Shown here: positions 4,298 to 50,602 of the stretch, one piece after another
How positions within the stretch are numbered: the first letter of the stretch is position 1
Layout of the letters: every line of letters starts with the position of its first letter
Assembly (NCBI GenBank): GCA_964566035.1
Contig: CAZMHH010000002.1
Coordinates: forward strand, 64,013 to 128,012
Reading direction: 5' to 3'
DNA length: 64,000 nucleotides
Source: an uncultured Thermodesulfobacteriota bacterium
GTDB lineage: Bacteria; Desulfobacterota; WTBG01; CAIYCZ01; CAIRTM01
The notes under the pieces: model-generated
What the model was told of the DNA's origin: nothing
Seen by the model: only the letters and a program-made list of their open reading frames with translations
The model's database searches: none
Made by a program: the position numbers and the translations under genes

Positions 4298-4300
4298 TTT

Positions 4301-5507: not shown

Positions 5508-5586
5508 TATTTTTTCTTCTTTGTTTTGTCAGCCTGAAAAACTCAAAACCCCTAGCGGCTAAATTTTAAACTTTTATGGATATGTT

Positions 5587-5826: not shown

Positions 5827-5829
5827 AAG

Positions 5830-11940: not shown

Positions 11941-11942
11941 AA

Positions 11943-12254: not shown

Positions 12255-12480
12255 GAGATGTTGAACTGATAAGCTGTTATGCAAAACCTTAAGACCAGGA
12301 TAGAAATTTTTTGCTTGTAACAAAATTCTTTTCGTGGTTGTTTTCATAATCGACAATTTGAGCCTGAAAAAGCAGCAAACAGAACTCAGGAAAAGAAAAC
12401 AGCTGTTAACTTGGAAGAATTGAGCGGGTTTAAGCAATAAACCAATGATAATCAAATTTAATCTTTTTAAGGAGGGATAA

Positions 12481-15647: not shown

Positions 15648-15668
15648 AGATTCGGAGAATTAATTTAA

Positions 15669-25518: not shown

Positions 25519-28518
25519 TTAATCTCCATTTACAGGCAGTCTAATTTTAAATTCTGTGCCCCTGTCCTTCTGTGGTAAACACTGAATTGTTCCTTTCATG
25601 GAATGTACAATACCATATACAACAGATAGCCCAAGTCCTGTATGCCCCTGCCCTTTTGTGGTAATATAAGGTTCAAAAATCCTCTGTCTTACCTCTTCGG
25701 GAAGCCCTGGCCCGTTATCGCTGATTATTATTTGAACAAAAGGCGGTTCAGAGGGAAGCAGATCAGTTTTTACAGTAATATCACCGCCTTCGGTAAGAGC
25801 TTCACCCGCATTTTTAATTAGATTGGTAAAGACCTGTTTAAGCCCTTCTTTGTTTGCTTTTAAATTTATTTCAGGCTGTTTAAATTGCGTATGAACCCTT
25901 ATTGCTTTTGTTGACAGGTATCCTTTAGTTATATTTAGTACCTCGGATATAACTTTATTTATATCAAGCAGTTCTTTAACAGCATGGTCAGGCAGAGAAA
26001 AATTAGACAAACCATCAACTATCCGTGAAGCTGAGTTTATCTCTTCCTGGATTATTTTAATTTCATTAAGATCAACATTCTGTTCAGCAAGGCGCATCTG
26101 TAGTATTTTTAAATAATTTTTGATTATACTAAGAGGGTTGTTTACTTCATGAGCAATTTTTCTGGCCACAGCCTTTGCTGCATCCATCCGCTCAGTTATT
26201 CTAACTACTTCCTGCTGATTTCTAAGTTTATCAGCATAGAGGGCAACACAGGTATGGTTCATAAAATTTTTAAGTAAGGCACTGTCATGTTTTAGAAATT
26301 CAATATAGTGTCTATCGCCCCCTACAGCAAAGACACCTAAACAGTCCCCCCTGCATGATAGCGGAAAACATATTATGCCCTCTTTTCCTGTGAGTTGTAT
26401 TATCTGTTCATCAATTATGGAGAGCCTGCTTTTTTGGAGGAACTCAAAAGAATCTGTAATAGTGTTATGTTTAAAACAATGGGACAATATGGTGCGGTCG
26501 TGTCTCAAAGGCACTGTAATTGGACCTATTGTTGAATTGAGACGGAGATCAGATGATGTGGAGCACACAAGAACGTCCATATTTTTTTTATACAGAAAAA
26601 CAAGTAGCTGTTCAGCTCCAAACAGTATCTTGAAACCACTTTCAGCAGCATTTATAATTTCCGCGGTATTTACCGCCTTTGAAATGTTTTCTACGGTTCC
26701 AAAAAGCACTGAAATCTCTTTTACATAACCTGAAAGCTCTTCCTGCTTCTGTTTGTCAGAAACATCTTCTTCTTCTGTTATTTCAATTCCAAGAGAAAGG
26801 GCTGTCTGGTTAGCCTTTTCTTTCATCTCATCTAATATCTTTTCCACCTCCTCGGATGAAAATCCGAGAAGTTCCCAGGCTTTTCTATAGCCTGTATTCC
26901 TCAGTTTTTCATTGTCAGAACAAAGGGCGTTTGATGTGTTGATTATTTTTACAAAATCAAATGCATTAAGCGCCCTTTCTAAGGGCTCATGATGATAAAG
27001 AACTGCATGACTGATAAAAGATTGAAGATTCCATTTCTGAATAAGTTCTGCGCCTGCCATGCAGTGATTTATACCGAGCTTGTTTTTTTCAAGATTTAAC
27101 AGCTCTTCCGGATCTGCTGCTTTTTTAAGTATAGCGGGGTATTTTTCGGGAAAGTTTGCAAGCAGAATTAGTTTTCCCATATCATGGAGAAGCCCTGATA
27201 GAAAGGCATCTTCAGGGGATGAAACAGAGCCTTTTTTTGCCATTAAACTTGAGCATATCCCTACATAAAGAGAGTGTCTCCAGAAATGTTTTAAGTTGAT
27301 AGAGCTGGAATATTGAGAGGTACTGAAAACCTGACAGACAGAAGCACTTACAGCCAGGTTTCTGATTGTTGAGCATCCGAGCAGGGATACAGCCTGTTCA
27401 ATATCTGTCGGTTTGGTGTTAAGATGGTAAAAGGCAGAATTAACCATCTTAAGGGTTTTTGAGCAGAGCACAGGATCTTTTTCAATAATACCGGCAATCT
27501 CTTTTAAACTTGTCTCCTCCCCTGAACATGCCTGAATCAGTCTCAGAAGAATATGCGGAAGAGACGGAAAGTTTAATGTATATAAGAGTCCCCTTTTTTC
27601 TTCCTTCAATTGTTGACCGGATATTTTAGATGGCAGGATGCCCTGTTTTTTTGAAGTAATTTTATCATCAGTTTGGTTCTTATTAACCTGCAAATGCTTT
27701 TCATTAAATTCAAAATTAGAGCCTGTAAAACTGAAAAATCTGGACCAGAAAGATGCTGAAGATGAAAGGTTAAGATTTTCGGTTCTGTTTTCAAGCAGCC
27801 GAACTGCAGCAGACTTAAACCCCTTTGAAGCTTTAGAACCTGGATAGAGGGTTATTAAAGGGACCTGTTTTTTTACTGCTTCCTGAAGAGCCTCATCATA
27901 GAGAATAACCCCAAGCGGTTCAATATCCACTGCAAGATATTTGTTTACAACCTCTTTTAATTTCTTATACACCTGTGTTGCTTTATCCATGTTGCTGCAC
28001 TGATTGATTACAAGCTTTATTGTACCGGTGAATTTTTGAGCGTTTAAAACCTTCAGCAGTGAATAGGAATCTGTTAAAGATGTAGGTTCCGGAGTTACCA
28101 CACAGACAATTTCTTTTGAAGCCATACAAAAACTTATTACATTTCTTGAAATCCCGGCTGCTGTATCAAATATTAAAAAGTCATAGCAATCAAGAGGATT
28201 AAAGGTTTTTATCAATTCATCAATTGACTCTTTTTCAAGATTTGCAAGTTTTTCAACCCCGGAACTTCCTGGAATAATATCGATACCGTGATAATTTTTA
28301 ATAATCACATCCTCAAGCCTTTTTTCCTTTGACACAACATCTTCAATACCAAACTCAGGATAAATACCAAGCAGTACATTTATATTTGAAAGCCCCAGGT
28401 CTGCATCAAAGAGACAGACCCTCGAGTCCTTTTCTGCAAGACAGAGCGCAAGGTTTAAAGCAGTGTTTGTTTTGCCCACACCTCCCTTACCACCTGTAAC
28501 TGCAATTGTTCTTATCAT
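25519..28518 (-). CDS. Multidomain sensor: MinD/ParA-family P-loop ATPase fused to an HDOD domain, a GAF-like domain and a histidine kinase
   Basis: 999 aa. N-terminal deviant Walker A GGKGGVGKT with a MinD/FlhG-like domain of about 250 aa. HDOD block (...LLHDMGKLILLANFPEKY...LYHHEP). C-terminal H-box HEVNNPLSII and G-boxes DNGPGLP and GLGLSVV. Confidence 0.8.
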   Translation of the reverse strand: MIRTIAVTGGKGGVGKTNTALNLALCLAEKDSRVCLFDADLGLSNINVLLGIYPEFGIEDVVSKEKRLEDVIIKNYHGIDIIPGSSGVEKLANLEKESIDELIKTFNPLDCYDFLIFDTAAGISRNVISFCMASKEIVCVVTPEPTSLTDSYSLLKVLNAQKFTGTIKLVINQCSNMDKATQVYKKLKEVVNKYLAVDIEPLGVILYDEALQEAVKKQVPLITLYPGSKASKGFKSAAVRLLENRTENLNLSSSASFWSRFFSFTGSNFEFNEKHLQVNKNQTDDKITSKKQGILPSKISGQQLKEEKRGLLYTLNFPSLPHILLRLIQACSGEETSLKEIAGIIEKDPVLCSKTLKMVNSAFYHLNTKPTDIEQAVSLLGCSTIRNLAVSASVCQVFSTSQYSSSINLKHFWRHSLYVGICSSLMAKKGSVSSPEDAFLSGLLHDMGKLILLANFPEKYPAILKKAADPEELLNLEKNKLGINHCMAGAELIQKWNLQSFISHAVLYHHEPLERALNAFDFVKIINTSNALCSDNEKLRNTGYRKAWELLGFSSEEVEKILDEMKEKANQTALSLGIEITEEEDVSDKQKQEELSGYVKEISVLFGTVENISKAVNTAEIINAAESGFKILFGAEQLLVFLYKKNMDVLVCSTSSDLRLNSTIGPITVPLRHDRTILSHCFKHNTITDSFEFLQKSRLSIIDEQIIQLTGKEGIICFPLSCRGDCLGVFAVGGDRHYIEFLKHDSALLKNFMNHTCVALYADKLRNQQEVVRITERMDAAKAVARKIAHEVNNPLSIIKNYLKILQMRLAEQNVDLNEIKIIQEEINSASRIVDGLSNFSLPDHAVKELLDINKVISEVLNITKGYLSTKAIRVHTQFKQPEINLKANKEGLKQVFTNLIKNAGEALTEGGDITVKTDLLPSEPPFVQIIISDNGPGLPEEVRQRIFEPYITTKGQGHTGLGLSVVYGIVHSMKGTIQCLPQKDRGTEFKIRLPVNGD

Positions 28519-28672: not shown

Positions 28673-30499
28673 TTATTCTTTTGCAAGCCGGTAAATCTTT
28701 GCTCCCAGATAACCCTCTTCCCTTTCATCCTCAGGCCAGTAGTTTGAGGGAAGAAGATTTGAAGCAGCAACATAGAGCTTGTCTTCAAATTCTGTAAAAG
28801 CCTCTATCTGGAGGATTGTTTTATCTCCAAAACCGTTTTGAAACACAGGGCTCCATGTATAAACTCCATCTTTTCCTGTCATCTTCCATAGATGCGCTCC
28901 TTCTATCTCATCAACTTTTTTCCCGAATTCAACATTGTTCTGATACGTGCCGGCATACATGGAATTTCCGAATGTATATAGATTCATACAAATAATTGAG
29001 GCATATCCCTTATTCATTCCAAACCCCCCCGGTACATCAGAATCGCCACCAACATTATACTGCCATGTAGGTGTTATTCCGTCATCCTGAAAGTCATTCT
29101 CTGAGCCTGTTTCTGTAAACATGATTCTTCCCCCGTCAAGAATTCTGGCAATAGATGTGAAAAGTTTCCCGTCGTATTCTGCCCAGTCCCAGGCTTGAAA
29201 ATTTGATTCAAAAAAATTTGTAGACCCATCTCCAAACCCGTTTTCATTAGTTCCCGTAGTATTTTCATCCACAAAATAATCTATAATAGGTGACCAGTCA
29301 CCGCTGTCGAGTTTGAACACCCTTGCCCCGATCCCGTTGCATCCTGTTGAACCTGTTCCGCCCACAAAGAGGGTCTCTTCTCCTGTTATAGTGCTTTTGC
29401 CGAATTTGTTTGAGCTTGAACAGACAGGACTCCCGTTTCTGTACTCCTGACTAGAAATTAAACATCCGTGCAAATTCAGGTTCCAGTCATATCCATGAAA
29501 AAGCCCGAAACTTCTCTTGGAGGATTTTTCCCAGTTAATTCCATCAGAGGTTTTCATGATGTGGGTTCCGCTTTCATAATTCAGTCCAATTGATGCATAA
29601 AGCTCATTGTCCAAGATTTCAAAATCAACAATGGTTTTATTCCAGAAATCTCCAAAACCGTTGATTCTGTCTCCGGTCATAATAAAATATTCCAAACCTG
29701 CTAAAAGCGCAGGAACTGTATATCCGGGACGGCCGGGTTCCCCCGGAACAAAAAATTCATCGCACCGGGTATATTCATTAAAATAGTCGGGGGTTCTATC
29801 AAGTTTTGCAGCAGCACATTCAGACTGTTGTACTGTAAGGGTATTTTCTGTATTACTGATTATTCTGAACACCCGTCCCTTGCTGTCAGATTTTTCATCT
29901 GTTATCCATAGGGTTCCTCCTGCCCATTCATTTTCATCCCAATCCTTGGCATAATCCGTGAAATCGGCTGTCTCATGGTCATCATCAAGGGAACAGCCAA
30001 AAATTTCATCTATTATGCCTTCTTCACTTTTATCAGCAAGCAAGTGTGAAATAACCGGTTCCCAGTCTTCTCCATCAAATCTCCATATTTCACAACCAAC
30101 TGATTTATATCTATTAGCTCCCTGAAACCCTGAAGATACGGCAACATAAAGATGTTCTTTAAATTCTATCATATCACCCCATATATTGTGCATAAATTCA
30201 TGGAAAATACCGTTGGTAAAGCCTGGTGCACTTACTTTCTCCCAACTCTCTCCTTTTGTATGCCACAACTCAAAACCTGATACATCATTGCGTGTAATGG
30301 CATAAAGACTTCCCTGAAAAGGAGTCATTGCCACAACAGAAACATTGTATTTATCTCCAAATCCGGCTACACTTACCCTTTCCCATACAGATCCGTCTTC
30401 ACCTTCAAGCTGTTCAAGGCTCTTTGGAACATTGTTTTCAGGAAAGCACCCCGTAAAAACAAATAATAAAAACAATATTGATAAAAATATCTTTTTCAT
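28673..30499 (-). CDS. Lipoprotein with ELWxxDG-like beta-propeller repeats; function unknown
   Basis: 608 aa. Lipobox FLLFVFTGC. Recurring blades (GFELWHTKGESW, EIWRFDGEDW, RVFKLDSGDW, HLWKMTGKDGVYTW) and many GFGD motifs. Confidence 0.6.
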   Translation of the reverse strand: MKKIFLSILFLLFVFTGCFPENNVPKSLEQLEGEDGSVWERVSVAGFGDKYNVSVVAMTPFQGSLYAITRNDVSGFELWHTKGESWEKVSAPGFTNGIFHEFMHNIWGDMIEFKEHLYVAVSSGFQGANRYKSVGCEIWRFDGEDWEPVISHLLADKSEEGIIDEIFGCSLDDDHETADFTDYAKDWDENEWAGGTLWITDEKSDSKGRVFRIISNTENTLTVQQSECAAAKLDRTPDYFNEYTRCDEFFVPGEPGRPGYTVPALLAGLEYFIMTGDRINGFGDFWNKTIVDFEILDNELYASIGLNYESGTHIMKTSDGINWEKSSKRSFGLFHGYDWNLNLHGCLISSQEYRNGSPVCSSSNKFGKSTITGEETLFVGGTGSTGCNGIGARVFKLDSGDWSPIIDYFVDENTTGTNENGFGDGSTNFFESNFQAWDWAEYDGKLFTSIARILDGGRIMFTETGSENDFQDDGITPTWQYNVGGDSDVPGGFGMNKGYASIICMNLYTFGNSMYAGTYQNNVEFGKKVDEIEGAHLWKMTGKDGVYTWSPVFQNGFGDKTILQIEAFTEFEDKLYVAASNLLPSNYWPEDEREEGYLGAKIYRLAKE

Positions 30500-30723: not shown

Positions 30724-31548
30724 TTATACCTTTTCAGTAGGTTGTTTTTTGCTAAAAAAGGCTGATTTAATGAAGACAAATGCCAAAACAGCGGCAAATA
30801 TCCAGCATAAAACAATTATTATGGAGAGAAGAGGGTTTTTGAGAAAGCCTGCTTTGTGAACTGTGCCAAAAACAGCAGCTGTCTTTTCTTCTGCATGACA
30901 ACTCATGCAGAGAGCTGTTTTTTCCTGCATTTTGCCGTGATTGACAGAATCAAAATGACAATCCATACAGTTGGCAGTTGTATTTGTACAGCCCAGGTTT
31001 TCCTTTCCGTGCCCTTTGATGCGGGTGGAAATAAAGGATAGATAAGGGGGGTCTGCCTCTTCAGGATGGCATGCGCCGCAGGTTTGGGCAATGTTATCGG
31101 GATGAACTGAAGAGGCCGGCTCATCAACAAGCATTACCTCATGGGTGGTGTGGCAGTCATAGCATTTTGGCGTGTCCGCTGCAAAACGGGGGTCAAGCAT
31201 GCTGTGGGTGCTTTTGTCAAAAGCCGCCTGAATATCCTCATGACATTCTGCACAGTTCACCTCGGGATATCCATCAGCAGGGTGCTCTTCAGGTGTTGCC
31301 TCTGTATGACAGTCAATACAGTTATAACCCATACTTCCGTGGATTGAGCTTAAGAAGGCGTCTTTATCAACAAACTGACTGACTTCTTTGCCTGTTTTTT
31401 CATCAACCCTTGTCAGGTTTCTGTCCTGATGACATTCAAGACATGCATCTATCTCGTAAGCGTAAGTACTTTCTGCACTCACCGAAAAGAAAATGGCTAT
31501 CAGCATAATAAAAATAAGAAGCACTATATTTTTTGATTTGACTGTCAT
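30724..31548 (-). CDS. Membrane-anchored heptaheme cytochrome c (periplasmic, C-terminal TM anchor)
   Basis: 274 aa. Signal peptide. Seven CxxCH motifs (CLECH, CIDCH, CAECH, CYDCH, CGACH, CMDCH, CMSCH). C-terminal hydrophobic helix LLSIIIVLCWIFAAVLAFVFI. Confidence 0.85.
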   Translation of the reverse strand: MTVKSKNIVLLIFIMLIAIFFSVSAESTYAYEIDACLECHQDRNLTRVDEKTGKEVSQFVDKDAFLSSIHGSMGYNCIDCHTEATPEEHPADGYPEVNCAECHEDIQAAFDKSTHSMLDPRFAADTPKCYDCHTTHEVMLVDEPASSVHPDNIAQTCGACHPEEADPPYLSFISTRIKGHGKENLGCTNTTANCMDCHFDSVNHGKMQEKTALCMSCHAEEKTAAVFGTVHKAGFLKNPLLSIIIVLCWIFAAVLAFVFIKSAFFSKKQPTEKV

Positions 31549-31559
31549 ATCTTTTTAAT

Positions 31560-33488
31560 TTACTCCATTGCCTTTAAAACAATTTCTGCGATATCAAGAC
31601 AAGAGACATCATCTGCTTTTTCCCTGACCTTTATCCCATCCTCAAACATGGTCAGACAGAAAGGACAGGCTGTTGCAACAGTATCAGGTAATTTTTCCAG
31701 AGCCTGATCTGTTCGCATCTCATTAATCCGTTGACCCATGTGCTCCTCCATCCACATCCTGCCCCCACCTGCTCCGCAGCAGAAACTCCTGTTTCTGTTT
31801 CTGTCCATCTCAACAAGGCTTAAGCCGTCGATGCCTTTCAAAAGCTCTCTTGGCTGGTCATAGATATTGTTGTATCTGCCAAGAAAACATGAGTCATGAT
31901 AAGCGATTTTTTTCTGCTCGGTCTTTTTTAATCTTATCTTCCCTGTCTTTACTAAATCAAGAATATATTCACTGTGATGATAAACCTCAAAATTTCCCCC
32001 ATGCTGAGGATACTCGTTTTTGAGCATATTATATCCATGAGGACATATTGCAACTATTTTTTTAATATTGTAATTGTTCATTACCGCTATGTTTTGCTGA
32101 ACAAGGGTATCGTAGAGGTATTCATTTCCAATCCTTCTCGCCGAATCCCCGCAGCAGCCCTCTTCTGAGCCAAGTATTACAAACTTAATTCCAGCCTTTT
32201 GCAAAATCTTTACTAAAGCTATAGATACCTTTTTATATCTGTCATCAAAAGCCCCTGCACAACCGACATAAAAGAGTATATCAAAATCTTCACTTTCTGC
32301 AGCTGTCTTTACCCCAAGGTCTTTTGCCCATTCTCCTCTTGAATGCGAACCCACTCCCCAAGGGTTGCTGTTATTTTCCATGTTTCTAAACACTGCCTGA
32401 ACCTCTTGAGGAAAGTTTGCCTCCATAAGTACAAGATACCTGCGCATTTCAATTGTCTTGTCAACGGTTGTTTCAAAAACAGGGCAGTGTTCATGACAGT
32501 TGAGACACATGGTGCATGACCATATTGTCTCATTTTCAATAATATCGCCTATCAATGCTCTGTTTGCAGCATCTTCTGATTTTGAAAACCCTTTATCCTC
32601 CATGTGTTTTTTTAAATCCTGAAGCAGTTTTTTTGGAGAGAGAGGTTTCTGGCTTAAATGTGCAGGGCAGTTATCCTGACATCTTCCGCACCGGGTACAG
32701 GCGTCAAGCTGAAAGAGCTGTTTTCTGGTAAACTCTTCAATGGTTGAAACCCCGAATGTTTCAGCGGTCTCAAAATCACTTATTGGCTCAATTACCCCCG
32801 GAGCGTCATATTTTCTTAGGAAAATCTGAACTGAAGAAGTAACGATATGAAAAAATTTGGTATAGGGAATAAATGCAATCAGAGCAAGAACAAGGATCAG
32901 GTGAATGCGCCATATAAGTGCATGTAACAGGGTTTGTGCCTCGTTTCCAAACGGAATAAAGAGGTATGAAAAAAGAAATCCTACAGGAGCATATTCCGCC
33001 CCCTGCCCGGTAATTGCAAGGCGAAGCCCCTCAATGCAGAAACCAAAGAATATGATGGCAAAAAGCCAGATGAGCGCTACAGCGTCTTCTGTTTTTGTAT
33101 CGCTTAATCGGTCGGGTTTTTGAATATATCTGCGGTAGGCAGCAAAGGCAATTGCCATAATCCCCAAGGCGCCGATTATGTCAAGAAACAAAGAGAATCC
33201 ATTTGCAATGTTTTGAGGGAGTTGAAAACGCAGGTTGACAGCAAATATTACAAGCAAAGGAATAATGCATGCTAAAAAAATAAGAAGATGCATTATTCCC
33301 GGATATTTCTCTTTTAATATCCTGCCATGACCTATGGCATACACAAAAAAATCTTTTATGCGCAATGCTGTGTTGCCTTGCGCATCGGAGCTTTTGCCCA
33401 TGTTCCAGAGTCTGAATCTTCTTGCGATTCCTGCTGAACATATTATCAGGGCAAGTATAACCAAAAGGGGGTCGATTAAAGAGAGCAT
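31560..33488 (-). CDS. Membrane-bound FeS oxidoreductase: N-terminal multi-TM cytochrome-b-like domain fused to an HdrD-like 2x[4Fe-4S] + 2xCCG domain (ETF:menaquinone-oxidoreductase 'EMO'/DUF224 type)
   Basis: 642 aa. About 5-6 transmembrane helices with conserved His residues. Ferredoxin motifs CTRCGRCQDNCP and CTMCLNCHEHCP. Two cysteine-rich CCG domains (..CCGDSARRIGNE.., ..FCCGAGGGRMWMEEH..). Sits immediately downstream of etfBA. Confidence 0.8.
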   Translation of the reverse strand: MLSLIDPLLVILALIICSAGIARRFRLWNMGKSSDAQGNTALRIKDFFVYAIGHGRILKEKYPGIMHLLIFLACIIPLLVIFAVNLRFQLPQNIANGFSLFLDIIGALGIMAIAFAAYRRYIQKPDRLSDTKTEDAVALIWLFAIIFFGFCIEGLRLAITGQGAEYAPVGFLFSYLFIPFGNEAQTLLHALIWRIHLILVLALIAFIPYTKFFHIVTSSVQIFLRKYDAPGVIEPISDFETAETFGVSTIEEFTRKQLFQLDACTRCGRCQDNCPAHLSQKPLSPKKLLQDLKKHMEDKGFSKSEDAANRALIGDIIENETIWSCTMCLNCHEHCPVFETTVDKTIEMRRYLVLMEANFPQEVQAVFRNMENNSNPWGVGSHSRGEWAKDLGVKTAAESEDFDILFYVGCAGAFDDRYKKVSIALVKILQKAGIKFVILGSEEGCCGDSARRIGNEYLYDTLVQQNIAVMNNYNIKKIVAICPHGYNMLKNEYPQHGGNFEVYHHSEYILDLVKTGKIRLKKTEQKKIAYHDSCFLGRYNNIYDQPRELLKGIDGLSLVEMDRNRNRSFCCGAGGGRMWMEEHMGQRINEMRTDQALEKLPDTVATACPFCLTMFEDGIKVREKADDVSCLDIAEIVLKAME

Positions 33489-33585
33489 AATCTGATTTCT
33501 TTGAAGAGGTTAATTATCAAATATAATTGAAACAACTCCAGGTACGGTCGAAAATATGTATCTGGAGTTGTTTTTTGTTTTCAAA

Positions 33586-34578
33586 TCAGTCTGCAAGCAT
33601 CTTTTTGAGTTCTTCTGTCAAAGGCGGAACAATTTTAAACAGATCATCAACCACGCCGTAATCGCATTTTGAGAATATCGGAGCCTCTTCGTCTTTATTG
33701 ATTGAAACTATGATTTTTGATGTACCCATTCCTGCATAGTGCTGAATAGCGCCTGAAATACCGCATGCAATGTAGAGGTTGGGGGAAACAACCTTTCCTG
33801 TCTGTCCAACCTGGTCTGATACAGGTCTCCATCCGGCATCAACTGCTGCTCGGGAAGCGCCGACTGTAGCTCCAATAACTTCAGCAAGCTCTTCAAGCAT
33901 CTTGTAGTTTTCAGCGCCCTTCATTCCTCTTCCTCCTGAAACAATTATTTCAGCCTCAGTAAGGTCAACCTTCCCTGCCGCGGTTTTTAAAACTTCAACA
34001 ACCTTTACCCTGATATCACTTTCGGAGATCTCTGGAGCAACATTAACAACCTCTGCGCTTTTGGATGTGTCAGGCTCTGCCGCGATTAATACATTCGGTC
34101 TTATTGACGCAATGCTTATATCAGTGTTTTGAAAGCTGACTTCGCAATATGCTTTTCCTGCATACATTGGTCTTTTTACAGATATATTGTCGTCATCGCC
34201 AAGCTTTAAATCAACGCAGTCTGATGCAAGACCTGCTCCTACACGGGCCGCTACTTTCGGAGACAGATCCCTTCCCAGCACGGTTGCGCCAAACAACACA
34301 GTAGAAGGCTGTTCCTTTGTTATAAGGTCACATAATGCCTTTGCATAGGCATCTGTTGTATACTGTTTGAGAAGATCATGTTCAACAATATATACTTTTT
34401 CAGCTCCATAGGGAGCAAACTTTTCTGCCAGAGCTCCTATGTCTTTTCCAAGGCATACAGCGCAAAGGGGCTCACCTTTTTTATCTGCTATCTTTCTGGC
34501 TTCACTTAAAATTTCAAAAGCAACTTTTCTAAGCTTGCCTTCTTCCTGCTCTGCAAATACCCAAATTCCTTTTCCCAT
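33586..34578 (-). CDS. etfA: Electron transfer flavoprotein alpha subunit
   Basis: 330 aa. The FAD-binding C-terminal domain ([39 protein letters not shown]) is characteristic of EtfA. Confidence 0.9.
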
Positions 34579-34612
34579 TTTTGTATCTCCTATATTTTTT
34601 TGTGGTCAACAG

Positions 34613-35425
34613 TTAAATTATTTTTGCTTCTTCTCTTAATGCCTTTGCAAGGTTTGCCGCTTTTTCTTCAGGACTTTCTCCCTGAATAATTTTTGCGGCT
34701 GTTCTTGCCGGAGGTGAAGAGAAATTGCCTGCTTTTGTTTTTGAGCCTGCAGCTCCAACGGTTGCAGTGTCAATTCCAAGGTCGGCTGCTTTTACAGGAT
34801 TAAGGGGTTTTTTCTTTGCTTTCATTATGCCGGGAAGGGAAGCATATCTTGGCTCATTGAGGCCTTTCTGAGTTGTTATAACACAAGGTACGGGCATTTC
34901 AAGAACCTCTTCTCCGCCGACAATCTGTCTGTGTACTTTAACACTCTTTTTGTCTTCGCCAACCTCTACTTTTATTACAAGTGAGGCATGTGGAATATTA
35001 AGATGTTCAGCAAGAGCTACTCCGACCTGTCCCTGGTCGTCATCGATAGCCTGCTTGCCGCAGAATATAAGGTCATACTCCATTTTTTTAATCTGCTCAG
35101 CAAGTATCTTTGCTGTAGTCATAGCGTCGCTTCCGTCAAAAGCAGGATCGTCAAGGTGATATGCATTATCAGCGCCCATTGCAAGACCTGTTCTTATCGC
35201 CTCAACACTGCGTGCCGGCCCAAGACATACAAGAGATACAGCACCTGCACCTGCTTTTTCTTTCTGCTGTAAAGCTTCCTCAATTCCAAACTCATCATAA
35301 GGGCTGATAATAAATTTAACCCCGTCGAGCACAACATCTGATCCGTCAGATTTTACACGGATCTGGGCTTCTGTGTCAGGAACCTGTTTTAAACATACAA
35401 TACTGTTCACATCATCCTCCATCAA
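34613..35425 (-). CDS. etfB: Electron transfer flavoprotein beta subunit
   Basis: 270 aa. N-terminal IVCLKQVPDTE and the ...DLIFCGKQAIDDD... motif are typical of EtfB. Confidence 0.9.
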   Translation of the reverse strand: MMEDDVNSIVCLKQVPDTEAQIRVKSDGSDVVLDGVKFIISPYDEFGIEEALQQKEKAGAGAVSLVCLGPARSVEAIRTGLAMGADNAYHLDDPAFDGSDAMTTAKILAEQIKKMEYDLIFCGKQAIDDDQGQVGVALAEHLNIPHASLVIKVEVGEDKKSVKVHRQIVGGEEVLEMPVPCVITTQKGLNEPRYASLPGIMKAKKKPLNPVKAADLGIDTATVGAAGSKTKAGNFSSPPARTAAKIIQGESPEEKAANLAKALREEAKII

Positions 35426-35832
35426 TTAAGTTTATTCTTTGGTTAAGTGGTTTTTAATTTAAAATTTTATCATATAAATGTGAATAATTTCAATAGTAAT
35501 TTAAAAGACAGCAATTGAGCTAAAGCCTGGTAACACAAAGAAGATCTTCTGATAAGTAAAAACAAAATTATAACAAGGCTTAAACCAGAAATGCCGGGTG
35601 CGGGGTTTATCTTTTAGCCTGGTTGTTGTGTTTACTTTATCTATATATATTATTTTTCTTTGTTTTTCTTATCTTATCAGAGGATAATTAAGGCAAACAT
35701 TATGCCAGTTAGCCCTTCAAAAAAAAGGGGATAATTATCTAAAAAAACAACAGTTTTGTATATGCGGGGTGATTCGGCAAGTGACAGTTTGTCAAAACAG
35801 TAAAAATATGGAATACGTTTGCCAAAAAAGGG

Positions 35833-37221
35833 TCAGTCGTCTTCGTCCATTCTTCTGTAAAGTGTTCTGGCAGAAACCCCGAGAATCTTTGAAGCGATAT
35901 TTTTATTGCCCTTTGAGTGTTTGAGTGTTTCGTTTATAACCATGTTTTCGATATCCTTAAGCGAAAGCTTGCCGATCGGGATATTCAGAACTTTTCCTTT
36001 CACCACCATGCTGTCCTGTTTTGAGCAGGAACTGACTATATCTTCGGGCAGATCTGATGTGGTTATTATGTCGTTTCTGGTCAGCACAACAGAGCGTTCA
36101 ATGGTGTTTTCCAGTTCCCTTACATTGCCGGGCCATGAATAAGCTGAAAGAATTGTCATAACATCATGGGAGATTGATTTTACGTTCTTTTCATTTTTTT
36201 TATTATAAATTTTCAGGAAATGATCTGCTAAAAGAGGAACATCCTCCTTTCTGTTTCTTAGGGGCGGTATATCAATGTTTATAACATTGAGCCTGTAGTA
36301 GAGATCTTCCCTGAACATCTTGTTTTCAACAAGTTCTTTAAGGGAGGCATTTGTTGCAGCTATGAGCCTTACATCAGCCTTCATTGTCCTGCCGCCTCCA
36401 AGTCTTTCAAATTCACCGCTTTGGAGCACCCTGAGAAGCTTTACCTGAACCGAAGGATTAATATCTCCAACCTCATCAAGAAAAAGAGTTCCGCCGTGAG
36501 AGAGCTCAAACCGGCCCTCCTTTTTTGAAAGAGCTCCTGTAAAAGCCCCTCTTTCATATCCAAAAAGCTCAGCCTCAAGCAGTGTCTCGGGAAGTGCTGC
36601 ACAGCTTACCTTCACAAATCTTTTGTCCCGTCTCGGGCTCATATTATGAATTGCTTTTGCAACAACCTCTTTTCCCACCCCGCTTTCACCTGTTATAAGA
36701 ATGGTCGCGGTGCTTGGAGCAACCTGAGAGAGCATTTCCATAAGATTTCTAAACGGCAGGCTTTTGCCTATTACCTGATTGTGAATTTCTATATCTTTGA
36801 GTCTTTCATGCAGATATCTGTTCTCCATGACAAGATTTTGTTTTTCGATAGCTTTTTTAAGAACCCTTAAAACAGTATTTTTATTAAAAGGTTTTTGAAT
36901 AAACTCAAAAGCACCTTCCTTCATAACCTCAACAGCCACTTCAACAGTGGCATGACCTGTTATGAGTATAACTTCAATATCCGGGGATATTGTCTTCGCG
37001 ATTCTTAACAGTTCTGCTCCATCTACCCCGGGCATTTTCAAATCAGTCAGAAGGACTGCAATATCATTTTTTTGAAGAATCTTTACAGCCTCATTTCCGT
37101 CCTGGGCGGTTATTACAATAAAATCCTCTTTTTGCAGAATTTTGGTTGCGGCTTCCCTTATACCAGGGTTGTCATCTGCTACAAGTATAACAGGCTTATT
37201 GGAGTTTTTTACATGCAACAT
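35833..37221 (-). CDS. Sigma-54-dependent response regulator (NtrC family: REC-AAA+-HTH)
   Basis: 462 aa. REC domain (ILVADDNP...AVLLTDLKMPGVDG). AAA+ Walker A GESGVGKE, the GAFTGA sigma-54 contact loop, and a C-terminal Fis-type HTH. Confidence 0.9.
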   Translation of the reverse strand: MLHVKNSNKPVILVADDNPGIREAATKILQKEDFIVITAQDGNEAVKILQKNDIAVLLTDLKMPGVDGAELLRIAKTISPDIEVILITGHATVEVAVEVMKEGAFEFIQKPFNKNTVLRVLKKAIEKQNLVMENRYLHERLKDIEIHNQVIGKSLPFRNLMEMLSQVAPSTATILITGESGVGKEVVAKAIHNMSPRRDKRFVKVSCAALPETLLEAELFGYERGAFTGALSKKEGRFELSHGGTLFLDEVGDINPSVQVKLLRVLQSGEFERLGGGRTMKADVRLIAATNASLKELVENKMFREDLYYRLNVINIDIPPLRNRKEDVPLLADHFLKIYNKKNEKNVKSISHDVMTILSAYSWPGNVRELENTIERSVVLTRNDIITTSDLPEDIVSSCSKQDSMVVKGKVLNIPIGKLSLKDIENMVINETLKHSKGNKNIASKILGVSARTLYRRMDEDD

Positions 37222-39368
37222 TACTCTTCTGATCCCTCTCTGTCTTTACTCCAGCATGGAACCCTGATTGTAAAGTAAGTTCCCTGTCCCTCAATGCTGT
37301 GGCATGAAATATATCCCTTATGTTCATAAATTATATGTTGTGTTATTGAGAGTCCAAGTCCTGTTCCGCCTTTTCTTAATGAGAAAAAAGGGGTAAAAAT
37401 CCTGTCAGTGTATTGGCTTGGTATCCCGCAGCCTGAATCTTTGAACACTATTTCTATATCCTGTTCCGCTGTTTTTGTAGAGACCTCTATAACACCGCCG
37501 GTATTCATTGAATCAACAGCGTTTCTGATAATATTGAGAAATGCCCTTCTGATCTGGGCCTTGTCAACAAAGGCAAAAGGCAGATCGTATTCAAAGTTTG
37601 TTTTAAAGATGATTTTTTTTCTCCTAAGCTCTTCTTCAAGCAACTCAAAAAGCTCTTCAATTATTGAGTGAATATCGTTCTTATCCGGACTTATTTTTGG
37701 AAAACGCGTACATTCAAGATATTCGTTAAGCACCTTATGAAGACTTTCTATTTCTGTTTTAATTGAGTCAAGAAGATTTTGAGCTTCCGAAATATCAGTC
37801 TCAACATAGGATTTTATTTCATCCTCAAGAAGATCAATATTGAGGGTAAGCGAGCCAAGCGGGTTTCTTATTTCATGGGCAACCTGAGCGGACATTTTTA
37901 CTATCATAGCTTTTCGTTCATGCTGTATAAGTTCTGATCTTAAAGCCATTTCCTTTGTAACATCTTTTACACATTCAGCAACGCGAATTGTTTTGCCGTC
38001 TTTGTCTTTCAACGGAAATGCATTCAGATGAAAATAAAATTTTCTGCCGCCAAGAACAATGCTAACCCTTTCCCTGAAAGCAGGTTTTCCTGTCTCAAAT
38101 GTTTCTCTTGCAGGGCAGCCTTCACAGAGAGAGTCCTGCTGGGTAAATACCTTGTAACATGCGAGGCCCTTGAAATCTTCAGGTTGTTTCCCGTGCCATT
38201 TGGCAACTGCCTGGTTGACCATAAGAACACGGTAGTTTCTGTCAACAATAGAAATACCGTCTGTTATTCCGTCAAAAACTTCCTGAGACCAGGTCAGTTC
38301 CTGCATAAAAAGATGTTTTCTTTTCTCCTGAACGCTTAAAAGAAGAGCTCCAGATAATATAACAATAATAAAAATTCCGGAAAAAACAATGGGCCATAAA
38401 AGACTTTCCATAAGAGCAGACATTGCTTCCCTGTAAGGAGCTGCAACCCCTATTGACCATGAAAGGTTATGAAAGGTTATGGGGCTGTAGGCTATAAGTT
38501 TTTTTGTGAGTTTTTTTTCTCCAAAATGCCAGCCTGTATATTCACCGCTTCCTTCTTCCCCCTTTGTCATTTCAAGATTTATAATAGTCTCGAGATTAAA
38601 TGAGGAATATTCGGGCCATAAACCCTGGAGAATTTCTATTGCATCTCTGCCCTCCATCTCCTTGCTGGGGTGAGAAATAAGCATGCCTTTGTCATCAATA
38701 ATCCAGGCATACCCTGTTTTGCCAGATTTAACAGGATAAACAAATTTATCCTTTATTGCATTAAAATCAGGGATTGTGCAGAGCCATCCGGAAAAATCCC
38801 CTGTCCTGACTCCAAGAATAAAGGAAAGCTTTCTTTCTTGTCCGGTTTCAAAAAAAGCAACTTTGGAAATTATTAAATCATCTGTTTGTTTAGAATCCGA
38901 AATAAATTTTTTCAGATCAAATTTATACAGTTGATCTACATCAACTGTTTCAGGGTAGGCAGCTGATATATTCCCTTGATTGTTCAGAATAAAAAAAGCT
39001 TCAATTACGTCCATCTGATTATTAAAAAGAGATTCAAGAACTTTTTTTTCAGGGGAATAGGGTATTATGTCAGAGGCTGTTCTAAGGGTTATCTCAATGC
39101 TCCGAAGGGCTCCTAAAACACTTTTAGCGGATTCTTTAACAAGATAAAGTTGCTGGTCGTTGAACGATGCAGCTGTTTTTTCGACAACGATTCTTTGACT
39201 GTTAAAAGCAATAAGCAGAATACCGCCAATGATTATAAAAGCGGCAATCCATATACTTTTTATCTCTGTTTTTATTCGGGGCAAGCTGCTATCTCCGGCA
39301 AAAGGTTTTCTTGAAAAAAAAGCACCTCTTTCAATACAAATAGTAATAGAAAGAAGAAGAAAAATCAA
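37221..39368 (-). CDS. Sensor histidine kinase with periplasmic Cache-like sensor domain and cytoplasmic PAS domain
   Basis: 715 aa. Two transmembrane helices flank a periplasmic domain of about 270 aa. PAS region with Cys-rich CYKVFTQQDSLCEGC. H-box HEIRNPLGSL and G-boxes DSGCGIP and GGTGLGL. Its stop overlaps the regulator start by 1 nt. Confidence 0.85.
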   Translation of the reverse strand: MIFLLLSITICIERGAFFSRKPFAGDSSLPRIKTEIKSIWIAAFIIIGGILLIAFNSQRIVVEKTAASFNDQQLYLVKESAKSVLGALRSIEITLRTASDIIPYSPEKKVLESLFNNQMDVIEAFFILNNQGNISAAYPETVDVDQLYKFDLKKFISDSKQTDDLIISKVAFFETGQERKLSFILGVRTGDFSGWLCTIPDFNAIKDKFVYPVKSGKTGYAWIIDDKGMLISHPSKEMEGRDAIEILQGLWPEYSSFNLETIINLEMTKGEEGSGEYTGWHFGEKKLTKKLIAYSPITFHNLSWSIGVAAPYREAMSALMESLLWPIVFSGIFIIVILSGALLLSVQEKRKHLFMQELTWSQEVFDGITDGISIVDRNYRVLMVNQAVAKWHGKQPEDFKGLACYKVFTQQDSLCEGCPARETFETGKPAFRERVSIVLGGRKFYFHLNAFPLKDKDGKTIRVAECVKDVTKEMALRSELIQHERKAMIVKMSAQVAHEIRNPLGSLTLNIDLLEDEIKSYVETDISEAQNLLDSIKTEIESLHKVLNEYLECTRFPKISPDKNDIHSIIEELFELLEEELRRKKIIFKTNFEYDLPFAFVDKAQIRRAFLNIIRNAVDSMNTGGVIEVSTKTAEQDIEIVFKDSGCGIPSQYTDRIFTPFFSLRKGGTGLGLSITQHIIYEHKGYISCHSIEGQGTYFTIRVPCWSKDREGSEE

Positions 39369-39710: not shown

Positions 39711-41687
39711 TTATTGTCTGTTCTTTACAAGGTCATCAACTACCGCCGGTTCTGCAAGTGTAGTAGTATCTCCAAGATCATCTATCTGGCCTGCAGCCAC
39801 CTTCTTAAGAATTCGTCTCATTATCTTACCGCTTCTTGTCTTGGGAAGACCGTCAGCCCACTGAATCTTGTCCGGTGTTGCAATAGGACCGATTTCCTTG
39901 CGAACATGGGTGACGAGCTCTTTCTTAAGTTCGTCAGATTTTTCAACTCCAACATTAAGGGTTACAAAAGCATAGATTCCTTCTCCCTTAATATCATGAG
40001 GAAATCCAACCACTGCTGATTCAGCAACTTTTGGATGCGCTACAAGAGCACTTTCAACTTCCGCTGTTCCCATACGGTGACCGGAAACATTTATAACATC
40101 ATCAAGACGCCCCATTAGGAAGTAATCACCGTCAGCATCTTTTCTTGCACCATCACCTGTGTAGTATCTGCCTTTAAACTGCGTGAAATATGTATCTACA
40201 AATCTCTGATGATCTCCAAACACGGTTCTCATCATGCCCGGCCATGGTTTTGTAATTGTAAGATAGCCTCCTTCATTTACATCTGCAGGTTCGCCGTTTT
40301 CACGAACTATCTCAGGGGCTATGCCAAAGAAAGGCCTGTTTGCTGAACCCGGTTTAATCTTCATGGCTCCGGGTATTGGGGTAATAAGAAATCCTCCCGT
40401 CTCAGTCTGCCAGTAGGTGTCTACAATCGGGCATCTTCCACCGCCAACCTTGTTGTAGTACCACATCCATGCTTCGGGGTTTATAGGTTCGCCCACTGTT
40501 CCAAGGATTCTTAAGCTGCTCAGATCAATTCCTTCTAACCACTTGTCGCCCTGAGCTGCAACAGCGCGGATAGCAGTAGGTGCTGTATAGAACTGGTTTA
40601 CCTTGTATTTCTCTACAATTTGCCAGAATCTTGAATAGTCAGGATAACTTGGAACACCTTCAAACATGACACTTGCAGCTCCGTTTGAAAGCGGACCATA
40701 TACAATATAGCTGTGTCCTGTAACCCATCCGATATCAGCTGTACACCAGAATGTATCTTCTTCTTTCAGGTCAAAGACATACTTCAATGTTGTTGTAACA
40801 TAAAGAAGATATCCAGCTGTTGTATGAAGGGCTCCTTTGGGTTTACCGGTACTTCCTGATGTGTAAAGAATGAAGAGCGGGTCCTCTGCATCCATCTGTT
40901 CTGGTTCACAGTAAGCCTTCAACCCTTTTGCGTTCATCTCATCGTGCCACCATACATCTCTTCCTTCCTTCATTGAAACATCTGCACCTGTTCTTTTTAC
41001 AATTATGTTTGTCTCAATGCTCGGGCATGTCTCAAGGGCTGCATCGGCATTTTTCTTCAAGGGAACAACTTTTCCGCTTCTGTAAGAAGCATCACTGGTG
41101 ATTAACGCCTTTGCTTCGCAGTCCTGGATTCTGTCTCTGAGGGCATCTGAACTGAATCCGCCGAAAACTATACTGTGAACAGCTCCAATTCTTGTGCACG
41201 CAAGCATTGCAATGGGAAGCTCAGGGATCATTGGAAGATAGATCGCCACACGGTCGCCTTTCTTAACGCCTTTATTTTTAAGCACGTTTGCAAACTTGTT
41301 TACTTCGTGGTAGAGCTCAATATAGGTGTATGTCCGGGCATCATCAACCGGTTCACCCTGCCACATAAGGGCAGCCTTGTTTTTCCTTTCTGTCTTAATA
41401 TGTCTGTCAAGGCAGTTGTATGAAACATTAAGCTTTGCTCCCTTAAACCATGCTATATTTGCTTCAACCATGTCGGCTTCCAGAATCTTGTCTGCTTTTT
41501 TAAAGAACTCAATATGTTCATCCGCCATATCACTCCAGAATCCTTCAGGATCTTCGATTGAGCGTTTATACATCTTCTCATACTGGTCCATGCTGTTGAT
41601 GTGGGCTTTTTCTGCCAGTTCTTTGGGAATATCAAAGACTTTTCCCATACTCGCAAGCGATGTCATTGATTTTTTCTCTTCTGCCAT
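39711..41687 (-). CDS. acs: Acetyl-CoA synthetase (AMP-forming)
   Basis: 658 aa. AMP-binding signature [11 protein letters not shown], motifs [11 protein letters not shown] and the C-terminal ..[11 protein letters not shown], and the overall Acs length and N-terminus. Confidence 0.95.
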
Positions 41688-42352
41688 TCTTTCCTCCTTA
41701 AACTCTATTTAGTTGTAGAATTATTGTTTTGCCTTTTTTAAAAAGGCTTTATAAAATGTATATGTAAAATATTTTTGACACAGCAGTTTTTATGCCAAAG
41801 GTTATTTACGGGGCTTAATGTGGTGTTAATGAGAATCTATAATATTAAATTAAGTCAATATGGTTGTCAATAAAAAAATAAAAACAATTGGTTTTGACAT
41901 TATGTCATAGTGGTTTAGGTTTATATAATTAATTCAAATAACATTTAAATAGCTATACTTTAGCAAACAGTTGTTTTTATATAATTCCGTTAGTAAGTAT
42001 ATTGTATGTCAACATGACAATAGAGAGCAGAAGGAAAAAGCATTCAAAAGCAAAGATTAATAGACAAAAGGTCGAATATCTGTTAGTTTTGCAATTACAA
42101 AAATCAATATATTAACAGATTAAAAACTCTTGAGGTTTATGGCTCTGTTTTTGCAAATATTATATTATGCTGCAGTTAGCAGTGAAGCAGAAAGTGAGTG
42201 GATGAGTTAAAACACAGGGGGTAAGTTACAGGATAAAACTGAAACCATAAATAATTAATCTTTAATAATTTTTTGCTTTTGCTTAACAGTTCTTACCTGT
42301 TATCATGCTTTTGCTGCCAACTACGAACAAAATTCTAGTACAAAGGATTTTC

Positions 42353-49453: not shown

Positions 49454-50587
49454 ATGACAACAGACACATCAGATAGACTTGCAAGTATTTACAGAGAACA
49501 TTTTTACTCCTGCATCCAGTGCGGAAAATGCACAGGCGGATGCCCTATTTCTGTTGTTTCCCCTCTTTTTAATATCAGACGCCTTCTCTACGAAGCACTG
49601 AACACCAAAGGAGAAGAGATTGCCTACCACAAGGAGATGTTATGGGACTGTAGCACATGCACAACATGTGTTAAACGCTGCCCCAAAGATATAGACCCTG
49701 TTGAGCTGATAGTAAGCATGCGGAGCGTGCTTGTTGAAGATGGTCAACTCCCCCCTAAAATCAGAGACGTTTTAAAAAGCATATCTATCCGCGCAAACCC
49801 CTGGAACATAGGGCAGGAAAAAAGGTCTGAGTGGACAGAAGGTTTGAATATCAAAAACATAGCAGATGCTGAAGTTCTCTACTATGTAGGCTGTACCACC
49901 GCTTTTGATTCAAGACTCCATAAGGTTGCAAAATCTCTTGCAACAGCTCTGCAAAAGGCAGGTGTTAATTTTGGAACCTTTGGCAACGATGAGGTCTGCT
50001 GCGGAAACGAGATAAGACGAATGGGAGATGTATGGTCTTTTGATGCTCTCAAAGAGATGAACATGGAAATGTTCAAAATGTATCCGATTAAACAGATTAT
50101 TACTACCTCGCCTCACTGCTACAATACTTTCAAAAATGAGTATACTGAGCTGGAAATAGATGTCAAACACTACACCCAGGTTGTTGCTGATCTAATCAAG
50201 AATAAACAGCTTAAATTTACAAAAAAATTCGAAAAAACTGTAACCTATCACGATCCCTGTTTTCTTGGACGACAGAATCAGATATTTAAGAAACCGAGGG
50301 CAATACTAAAAAGAGTCCCAGGCATAAAGTTTGTTGAGATGGACAGGTCAAGGGAAAGAGCGCTCTGCTGTGAGGGCGGTGGCGGAAGAATGTGGGTTGA
50401 AGCACATGAAACACAGCAGAGAACTGTAACTATCAGAATACAGGAGGCTATAGATGCAGGTGCGGAGATAATTGCCGTTGCCTGTCCGTTCTGTCTCTTA
50501 ACCCTTGAGGATGAAGTAAAAAAGCAGGGGCTTGAAGACAAAATTCAGGTTCTTGACATAATGGAAATTGTAAATAAGGTTATATAG
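49454..50587 (+). CDS. HdrD-like heterodisulfide-reductase subunit (HdrC-type 2x[4Fe-4S] N-domain fused to HdrB-type 2xCCG domain)
   Basis: 377 aa. Ferredoxin motifs CIQCGKCTGGCP and CSTCTTCVKRCP. CCG domains (VCCGNEIRRMGD, LCCEGGGGRMWVEAHE). Confidence 0.8.
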   Translation: MTTDTSDRLASIYREHFYSCIQCGKCTGGCPISVVSPLFNIRRLLYEALNTKGEEIAYHKEMLWDCSTCTTCVKRCPKDIDPVELIVSMRSVLVEDGQLPPKIRDVLKSISIRANPWNIGQEKRSEWTEGLNIKNIADAEVLYYVGCTTAFDSRLHKVAKSLATALQKAGVNFGTFGNDEVCCGNEIRRMGDVWSFDALKEMNMEMFKMYPIKQIITTSPHCYNTFKNEYTELEIDVKHYTQVVADLIKNKQLKFTKKFEKTVTYHDPCFLGRQNQIFKKPRAILKRVPGIKFVEMDRSRERALCCEGGGGRMWVEAHETQQRTVTIRIQEAIDAGAEIIAVACPFCLLTLEDEVKKQGLEDKIQVLDIMEIVNKVI

Positions 50588-50602
50588 CAGGAATTTTATT
50601 CG

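Follow-up and report, generated by a model that had tools for sequence, protein, structure and literature searches.

A putative ETF-linked transmembrane haem wire: a heptahaem cytochrome c gene conserved beside etfB-etfA-EMO in Thermodesulfobacteriota

How could electrons from acyl-CoA oxidation reach the periplasm in an anaerobe whose electron transfer flavoprotein (ETF) genes are followed by genes for a membrane oxidoreductase and a multihaem cytochrome c? The question is raised by a 64,000-nucleotide stretch of DNA from an uncultured Thermodesulfobacteriota bacterium (assembly GCA_964566035.1, contig CAZMHH010000002.1, forward-strand positions 64,013 to 128,012), hereafter the window, in whose own numbering all positions are given. 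Four co-directional genes on its minus strand encode, in this order, EtfB, EtfA, an EMO/EtfD-type membrane ETF oxidoreductase (EMO) and a heptahaem cytochrome c. For syntrophic and sulfate-dependent degraders of fatty acids, the central problem of bioenergetics is to deliver the electrons of acyl-CoA oxidation (about −10 mV) to low-potential acceptors; the current answer invokes a reverse redox loop in which EMO, working alone, reduces methylmenaquinone. A dedicated cytochrome c partner, conserved across a large environmental clade, would imply a second solution, in which ETF is tied directly to the periplasmic cytochrome network, with possible outlets in formate or H2 production, in Qrc/NrfD-type quinone modules and in direct interspecies electron transfer. 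We propose, with a probability of roughly one half, that the four genes specify one respiratory module, an ETF-linked transmembrane haem wire through which electrons would flow outward to periplasmic carriers.

The cluster begins with etfB (34613–35410, minus strand; Pfam ETF, 1e-45), whose open reading frame (ORF) extends to a TTG at 35425. The true start is probably the GTG at 35410, which stands behind a GGAGGA ribosome-binding site and gives a protein of 265 aa; the resulting N-terminus, MNSIVCL, is identical to that of etfB in the syntenic locus L020. Downstream on the same strand lie etfA (33586–34578), encoding the ETF alpha subunit with its FAD-binding domain (Pfam ETF, 2.7e-48; ETF_alpha, 3.8e-37), the gene for the 642-aa EMO (31560–33488), assigned by Pfam, hydropathy and alignments, and the gene for the 274-aa cytochrome (30724–31548), recognised by its seven CxxCH motifs and by alignments of 12 and 65 sequences. 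Exactly 11 nt, attaaaaagat, separate the EMO stop codon from the cytochrome ATG. An earlier note on this DNA had described this arrangement and this spacing, and ORFs and Pfam matches confirm both.

That note had also taken the product of the last gene to be a seven-haem cytochrome with a C-terminal transmembrane (TM) anchor, and the protein bears this out. A hydrophobic Sec-type signal peptide (...SVSA/E) is followed by CxxCH motifs at residues 36, 77, 99, 129, 157, 194 and 214, by a TM helix at 233–251 and by a lysine-rich tail that is predicted to be cytoplasmic; Pfam assigns the domains Cytochrom_c3_2 and Cytochrome_C7. The clustering of CxxCH in this ORF is far beyond chance, the ORF holding 7 of the 13 such motifs found in the window (six-frame ORFs of at least 60 aa, 40,948 residues). 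Exactly seven further histidines, at positions 70, 89, 115, 136, 180, 204 and 231, are invariant in both the 12- and the 65-sequence alignment, a complement that would be enough for bis-His ligation of every haem. Members of the family all keep the seven CxxCH (one of them is CxxxCH in locus L022) and the C-terminal anchor.

How large is this family? A search with the single window sequence returned seven relatives, a small result that is an artefact of the word index, and a search with a 12-sequence profile, cut at E ≤ 1e-10, returned 252 clusters. Some 100 of them hold proteins of 285–310 aa from Thermodesulfobacteriota and from Syntrophaceae metagenome-assembled genomes (MAGs), annotated merely as 'cytochrome c3 family' or hypothetical. 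In an exhaustive profile search the N-terminal five-haem unit (profile positions ~14–167) was found repeated four to nine times in many cytochromes of 400–1000 aa, and it looks like a widely reused building block; among the 150 best representatives (clustered at 50%), ~16 are full-length single-copy members of 260–320 aa. Repeats of the five-haem unit occur in hundreds of large multihaem cytochromes (P0257–P0402). One further candidate for membership, the 11-haem protein P0008, which is encoded beside ETF-QO/etf genes in another phylum, was set aside since its architecture and context differ. An AlphaFold2 model of the window cytochrome has a pLDDT of 71, and its best Foldseek match, a weak one, is MtrA (6r2q_A; probability 0.95, TM-score 0.36, E = 0.06).

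The pairing of this cytochrome with EMO is conserved and is not a local accident. All cytochrome homologues with a readable genomic context either adjoin an EMO-like gene or share one operon with etf and EMO. The cytochrome gene comes directly after an EMO-like gene in the window (L001) and in L002, L003, L004, L005, L006/7, L009, L018/19, L020/21, L024, L026 and L027, so that the pairing holds over ~12 independent loci and down to a cytochrome identity of ~29%; where the upstream ORF is incomplete, it is the C-terminus of an EMO (L009) or of an EtfA (L005). All seven relatives from the single-sequence search occupy this position. The etf-EMO order of the window is also seen before the cytochrome gene in L002, L003, L005, L020, L026 and L027. 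Look-ups that started from EMO gave the same picture: a seven-haem gene of 280–295 aa lies right after the EMO genes of P0041 and P0026, and another follows the EMO gene of P0065 in L020, where synteny with the window runs from the acetyl-CoA synthetase gene via the kinase and regulator genes to the cytochrome gene. In L022 (P0069; also L023) the family cytochrome stands directly after etfA, in an operon that it shares with EMO. The gap between the two genes, 11 nt in the window, ranges from −4 to 38 nt among seven relatives of the same EMO clade and reaches 66 nt (L027) and 269 nt (L026) in loci of the sister clade. Judged by equal lengths of the longest contigs, EMO and cytochrome matches of the sister clade lie on shared contigs, for example P0078 and P0164 in a Syntrophaceae MAG. 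Finally, the pairwise identities of EMO and cytochrome over 10 loci are correlated (r = 0.885), and in a Mantel test none of 5000 permutations reached this value.

Where does the pairing end? Throughout the window's EMO clade and its sister clade (identity of at least 53%), each locus examined has a seven-haem family member next to the EMO gene or within its operon, which upholds across both clades the link that the earlier note had drawn from a single locus. A metagenome scan (80 EMO loci at 36–60% identity, mostly 36–53%), in which the window's own clade was not sampled, served as the cytochrome-less control, and among the matches listed a multihaem gene adjoins EMO in L026 and L027 alone; none of the others holds an ORF with at least three CxxCH. 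No multihaem ORF (at least three CxxCH) was found at 60 more distant EMO loci (identity ≤50%, at least 1 kb of downstream sequence). A scan of genome contigs with a single EMO gave eight distant loci, from KSB1 and Actinomycetota. For EMOs outside both clades, including the Syntrophus-like, KSB1 and actinobacterial EtfD types, no cytochrome gene was seen in the readable flanks, the Syntrophus-like contig L031 extending just 56 nt past EMO.

The EMO-cytochrome pair also occurs apart from etfBA. In L004, L018/19 and L024, which we call type B loci, the pair has no etfBA before it, and its EMO is 64–71% identical to that of the window. The three preceding genes there encode an N-anchored tetrahaem cytochrome of 160 aa, a Tat-exported 4x[4Fe-4S] protein (RRQFLK motif; best NCBIfam matches TtrB, DsrO and NrfC) and an NrfD protein of 390 aa. 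L022 combines both contexts: etfBA is followed by the seven-haem cytochrome, an FeS protein, an NrfD protein, a molybdopterin-like (QrcB/PhsA-like) protein, an N-anchored hexahaem cytochrome, EMO and a flavodoxin-like protein (locus 1–9592), an order that we read as a Qrc-like module embedded between etf and EMO. The EMO-cytochrome pair thus behaves like a cassette to which either ETF or periplasmic cytochrome/quinone modules can be joined, and we regard these modules as likely partners because the pair recurs with the tetrahaem/FeS/NrfD set and with the Qrc-like set. In one sample, ERZ27252234, an etfBA-linked pair (L003) and an NrfD-linked pair (L024) were both found, with EMOs that are 76% identical; they may be paralogues within a single genome, or two related organisms may each have supplied one.

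What does the EMO of the window have in common with the characterised enzymes? The protein, which has more than 5,700 homologues, shows five TM segments by hydropathy, a Nitrate_red_gam domain at residues 72–227 (1.1e-8), a 4Fe-4S dicluster region at 260–337 (matches to Fer4_8 and Fer4_10, with the cluster Cys columns invariant in the alignment) and two CCG stretches (4e-36). Its best solved relative is mycobacterial EtfD (MsEMO; 9ojn_A, E = 3e-109). In NCBIfam it reaches no equivalog cut-off, the models for TfrB, DsrK, TmcB, GlpC and HmcF all scoring far below theirs. The native Syntrophus aciditrophicus enzyme (SaEMO) has been solved by cryo-EM: H87 and H251 ligate haem bP, H233 ligates the distal twin haem, E187 holds the propionate cation, and the periplasmic TM II–III region caps the twin haem in an enzyme without a cytochrome c subunit (bioRxiv 10.64898/2026.08.18.745454). 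As a stand-in for SaEMO in residue mapping we used the EMO of metagenome contig L031 (gene order acetyl-CoA synthetase-etfB-etfA-EMO), because all of the published landmark residues match it at the published numbering. SaEMO residues H87, H233, H251 and E187 map to H67, H196, H214 and E153 of the window EMO, and all four are conserved; the three histidines are invariant in alignments of 26 and 71 sequences, and so in 10 cytochrome-linked and 60 cytochrome-less EMOs. The route drawn in the earlier note ran through haem b in the membrane domain, and the histidines that it calls for are in place, matching the ligands of haems bP and bD1. The haem-b domain of the window protein also holds H54, H189 and E153, the last of which is the Ca/propionate ligand.

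It is at the periplasmic face that the cytochrome-linked EMOs differ from the others. The segment from H67, the bP ligand, to D103, the conserved Asp with which TM III begins, includes the periplasmic TM II–III loop; it is 35 residues long in 10 of 10 cytochrome-linked EMOs, and its equivalent has 39–61 residues in 60 of 60 cytochrome-less EMOs and 44 in the Syntrophus-like protein. The cytochrome-linked EMOs are also without a 19-residue periplasmic N-terminal extension, and they carry the clade-specific residues D6, H54, P77, G109 and R194, the last of which is Trp in other EMOs. Taken together, these differences would agree with a distal haem site made accessible to a partner protein.

We propose the following path. 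EtfAB would collect the electrons of acyl-CoA dehydrogenases and pass them to the non-cubane and cubane FeS clusters on the cytoplasmic side of EMO. The electrons would then cross the membrane through haem bP and haem bD and, at the periplasmic face, would be exchanged with the dedicated, presumably all-bis-His heptahaem cytochrome c, whose C-terminal TM helix would lie beside EMO. Since each electron would leave the negative side of the membrane for the positive one, the membrane potential could push the electrons of beta-oxidation (enoyl-CoA/acyl-CoA, about −10 mV) down to the potentials of the periplasmic haems. From there they might go on to NrfD/Qrc-type quinone reductases, to a periplasmic cytochrome c3 pool, to formate dehydrogenase or hydrogenase, or to extracellular partners. 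The gene content, the topology signals, the haem and cluster ligands, the conserved pairing, the co-divergence and the clade-specific loop shortening are directly seen; from them we infer the physical complex, the transfer from haem b to haem c, the outward direction in fatty-acid oxidation and the acceptors.

Several points weigh against this proposal. The evidence for a complex is genomic, the structural model of the cytochrome is of moderate confidence, and the fold searches gave weak matches. The cytochrome-linked EMOs form one or two related clades, so that the correlations of pairing with loop length and with single residues are not phylogenetically independent. Native Syntrophus EMO is a stand-alone methylmenaquinone reductase (bioRxiv 10.64898/2026.08.18.745454), so that quinone reduction is to be taken as the default activity of the EMO family. 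Finally, the quinone site may well persist in the cytochrome-linked EMOs. Its published landmarks are E22 and H109, proposed from a docking model as proton donors to methylmenaquinone in SaEMO (bioRxiv 10.64898/2026.08.18.745454), and F94 and F240, which line the central menaquinone pocket. In the window protein E22 maps to S3, with the invariant D6 three residues off in an N-terminal region of uncertain alignment, and F94 and F240 map to the smaller C74 and L203. It is because D6 lies near the E22 position and because smaller residues replace the two phenylalanines that the site may persist.

These last points lead to the alternative that survives best, one that we hold possible, if rather unlikely. 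EMO would here still be a menaquinone reductase and the cytochrome a side port, with the distal haem/quinone site acting as a three-way junction at which ETF and the periplasmic cytochrome pool (H2, formate, extracellular) both equilibrate with menaquinone, in a role like that of Qrc, CbcL or ImcH; the pair would then work as an ETF- and cytochrome c:menaquinone oxidoreductase and not as a bypass of quinone. (Methyl)menaquinone reduction is the activity that has been shown for the family (bioRxiv 10.64898/2026.08.18.745454; PMC13083937), H196 and E153 are kept along with the D6 and the small pocket residues just described, and the identity of 64–76% between EMOs in etf and in NrfD contexts suggests a shared core activity. 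However, conservation fails at the proposed proton donor H109, which maps to Q89, a position held by Ser, Val, Thr or Gln across the clade, and every cytochrome-linked EMO has a shortened loop over the distal haems. Moreover, the type B and L022 loci carry a separate NrfD-type quinone module, which would duplicate the function of an EMO that handled quinone itself.

The direction of flow could also be the reverse of the one that we propose. In a Tmc-like arrangement, electrons from periplasmic H2 or formate, from a syntrophic partner or from an electrode would enter through the heptahaem cytochrome and end, on the cytoplasmic side, on ETF (enoyl-CoA respiration, reductive steps) or on a thiol/disulfide carrier at the CCG clusters. 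Inward flow is the direction thought to apply to Tmc (PMC5109826), the Syntrophus EMO is reversed in crotonate 'enoyl-CoA respiration' (PMC8805022), and the type B loci have no etf genes near them. Such flow would, however, be opposed by the membrane potential; the conserved neighbours in the etf-linked (type A) loci, namely the acetyl-CoA synthetase gene, etfBA and, downstream in L020, an aldehyde oxidoreductase gene, point to oxidative acyl-CoA catabolism; and no DsrC-like or thiol-carrier gene is linked. We consider inward flow improbable. That the cytochrome is an independent periplasmic protein which merely shares the etfBA-EMO operon is a reading to which the genomic nature of the support for a complex still lends something, yet it is very improbable, given a pairing that is kept over the ~12 independent loci down to ~29% cytochrome identity and that survives the swap of upstream etfBA for another gene set, the co-divergence of the two proteins, and a cytochrome family that in the loci compared never occurs without an EMO-like gene.

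How far might the outward haem wire be taken? In its boldest form, which we regard as doubtful, EMO would be no quinone reductase at all in a large Thermodesulfobacteriota clade that includes both sulfate reducers and Syntrophaceae-like syntrophs; it would be a quinone-independent, membrane-potential-driven ETF:cytochrome c oxidoreductase, its heptahaem wire handing the electrons of beta-oxidation to interchangeable periplasmic modules (NrfCD/Qrc-like quinone reductases, formate dehydrogenase or hydrogenase) or to extracellular partners. If that were true, fatty-acid oxidisers would have a direct interspecies or extracellular electron route.

The four genes would be expected to be expressed together. 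No promoter or terminator was found inside the cluster, where the pattern matches are of a generic sigma-70-like kind, and the 11-nt gap is too small to hold one; a promoter and terminator of its own, which in the earlier note would have spoken against the idea, are not seen for the cytochrome gene. In the intergenic region upstream of etfB there is a sigma-54-type element, TGGCATaatgtTTGC (GG-N10-GC; 35693–35707, minus strand), with one mismatch to TGGCAC-N5-TTGC, and a weaker sigma-54-type element, TGGCATatattTTGA, is found at the equivalent place in L020. Over the entire window, sigma-54 pattern matches are about as frequent as chance predicts (56 seen, ~54 expected), and for this reason TGGCATaatgtTTGC is a candidate promoter of the four-gene operon, one that its position alone recommends. 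Next to it lies the gene for a sigma-54-dependent response regulator (35833–37221, minus strand; REC-AAA+-HTH_8 by Pfam), whose L020 counterpart has 67% identity and the same position and which is the probable regulator of the operon. The adjoining gene, for a dCache-PAS histidine kinase (37221–39368, minus strand; Pfam; 50% identity to its L020 counterpart), would encode the regulator's partner.

Beyond this pair of genes lies that for an AMP-forming acetyl-CoA synthetase (39711–41687, minus strand), a conserved upstream neighbour of etf-EMO clusters that is also present in L020 and L031 (64% identity in L031). In S. aciditrophicus, Acs1 (SYN_02635) adjoins etfBA-EMO (SYN_02636-38) (PMC4992975, PMC5606693). 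A second sigma-54-like element, TGGCATaaaaaCTGC, is located at 41783–41797 (minus strand), ~100 nt upstream of the acetyl-CoA synthetase gene. Because this element resembles the sigma-54 element ahead of etfB, one regulator may control both the acetyl-CoA synthetase gene and the etf-EMO-cytochrome operon.

On the other side of the cluster, the next gene (28673–30499, minus strand) encodes a predicted lipoprotein of 608 aa with the signal ...FVFTGC and repeated GFGD-type motifs, for which no Pfam or NCBIfam match was found. Among the loci compared it occurs only in the window's own genome, and it has a promoter-like site at 30574–30546. It was considered as a part of the module and rejected on account of the 224-nt gap, this promoter-like site of its own and the lack of a counterpart in the other loci. 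Farther along, 25519–28518 (minus strand) encodes a protein of 999 aa in which, unusually, a MinD/ParA-type ATPase is fused with HDOD and histidine kinase (HisKA, HATPase_c) domains.

The rest of the window holds several features of redox or energy metabolism. A V/A-type ATPase cluster (7279–16328, plus strand), with subunits I/a (7279–9234), C/AC39 (10819–11940), A (12481–14253) and B (14250–15647), stands in an otherwise Thermodesulfobacteriota-like anaerobe. On the plus strand, 49454–52576 encodes a soluble HdrD-like protein (Fer4 + 2xCCG, 377 aa) and then an HdrA-like flavoprotein (657 aa), and 3.6 kb beyond these genes lies one for an aldehyde:ferredoxin oxidoreductase (56159–57988, plus strand), a gene type that also flanks the EMO-cytochrome loci L020 and L024. 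A second multihaem protein (61203–62843, minus strand; 546 aa, four CxxCH, CarboxypepD_reg domain) adjoins an 850-aa BNR/Sortilin-Vps10/CarboxypepD_reg protein (region 58623–62843), and the two may form a cell-surface redox pair. The sole RNA gene detected in the window by ARAGORN and Rfam is that of a tRNA-Leu(CAG) (5423–5508, plus strand).

With what known systems, then, should the module be compared? The closest by sequence is EMO/EtfD itself (SYN_02638, Rv0338c, 9ojn), also known as the DUF224 protein and named HdrF3 or FadF in genome papers (PMC2702500, PMC5109826). The window protein shares with it the five-TM NarI-like domain, the two cubane and two CCG clusters, the same three haem ligands together with E187/E153, and a gene position directly behind etfB-etfA, in a cluster that, like the one of Syntrophus, has an acetyl-CoA synthetase gene upstream. 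However, the characterised EMOs act alone and reduce (methyl)menaquinone, whereas the window EMO and its close relatives are always paired with the heptahaem cytochrome. At ~45% identity to the Syntrophus-like protein, the window EMO has a TM II–III loop that is nine residues shorter and is without H109; the 19-residue periplasmic N-terminal extension of SaEMO is absent from it. No cytochrome c encoded with EMO is mentioned in PMC8805022, PMC13083937, PMC2702500, PMC5109826, PMC5606693, PMC10553843, PMC6687939 or bioRxiv 10.64898/2026.08.18.745454, and none associated with EMO is described in the EMO/EtfD, sulfate-reducer genome and Smithella/syntroph literature, of which our coverage is incomplete, so that an earlier report is possible.

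By architecture, the combination of a cytochrome b, a CCG protein and a periplasmic cytochrome c is the known design of Tmc, Hmc and DsrMKJOP, a precedent that the earlier note left out. In Tmc and Hmc, electrons pass between a periplasmic cytochrome c and a cytoplasmic CCG protein via a NarI-type cytochrome b (PMC5109826). TmcABCD, a quinone-independent transmembrane path and a minimal version of Hmc, likewise unites a periplasmic multihaem cytochrome c, a NarI-type cytochrome b and an HdrD-like CCG FeS protein. Tmc differs in its cytochrome, the soluble tetrahaem type II c3 TmcA, in dividing the CCG and b parts between two proteins, TmcB and TmcC, and in having a further subunit, TmcD, and its cytoplasmic partner is thought to be DsrC, where that of the window module would be ETF. 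The TmcB model gives the window EMO 70.7 bits against a cut-off of 735, and the fusion of the b and CCG parts and the seven haems and TM anchor of the cytochrome likewise place the module outside Tmc. DsrMKJOP and Hmc have the same subunit inventory as the type B loci, and the window locus corresponds to M and K plus a J-like part. They differ from it in that M and K (E and F in Hmc) are fused in the window-type EMO, in haem number (seven, apparently of the bis-His type, in the window cytochrome, three in DsrJ, 16 in HmcA) and in that the window locus has etfBA instead of O and P (FeS/NrfD) genes. The window EMO scores 71.4 bits with the DsrK model (cut-off 400) and 50.6 with that of HmcF (cut-off 750). 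For the type B relatives, the FeS protein, DsrO-like, reaches 176 against 200 and the NrfD protein 48 against 350 with the DsrMKJOP models, and the Hmc models give 102 against 420 (HmcB) and 24 against 550 (HmcC). Among the linear wires of the MtrA/DmsE/NrfB type, the cytochrome has a weak structural likeness to MtrA, with haems that appear closely spaced and bis-His ligated. The window protein differs in its seven haems, against ten, in its inner-membrane C-terminal helix and in having no porin partner; NCBIfam gives weak partial matches of the cytochrome to decahaem families, and its 35.8 bits with the GSU2203-family (decahaem) model, cut-off 325, do not place it with MtrA/DmsE.

In its predicted parts the module thus resembles Tmc, Hmc and DsrMKJOP and yet belongs to none of them; it would be the ETF-fed counterpart of these transmembrane complexes. 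By analogy, the version in the window may be pictured as a Tmc-like minimal complex that is fed by ETF. What appears to be new is the combination of the EMO/EtfD family with the architectural principle of Tmc, Hmc and Dsr, a design that would here be reused with ETF as its cytoplasmic partner.

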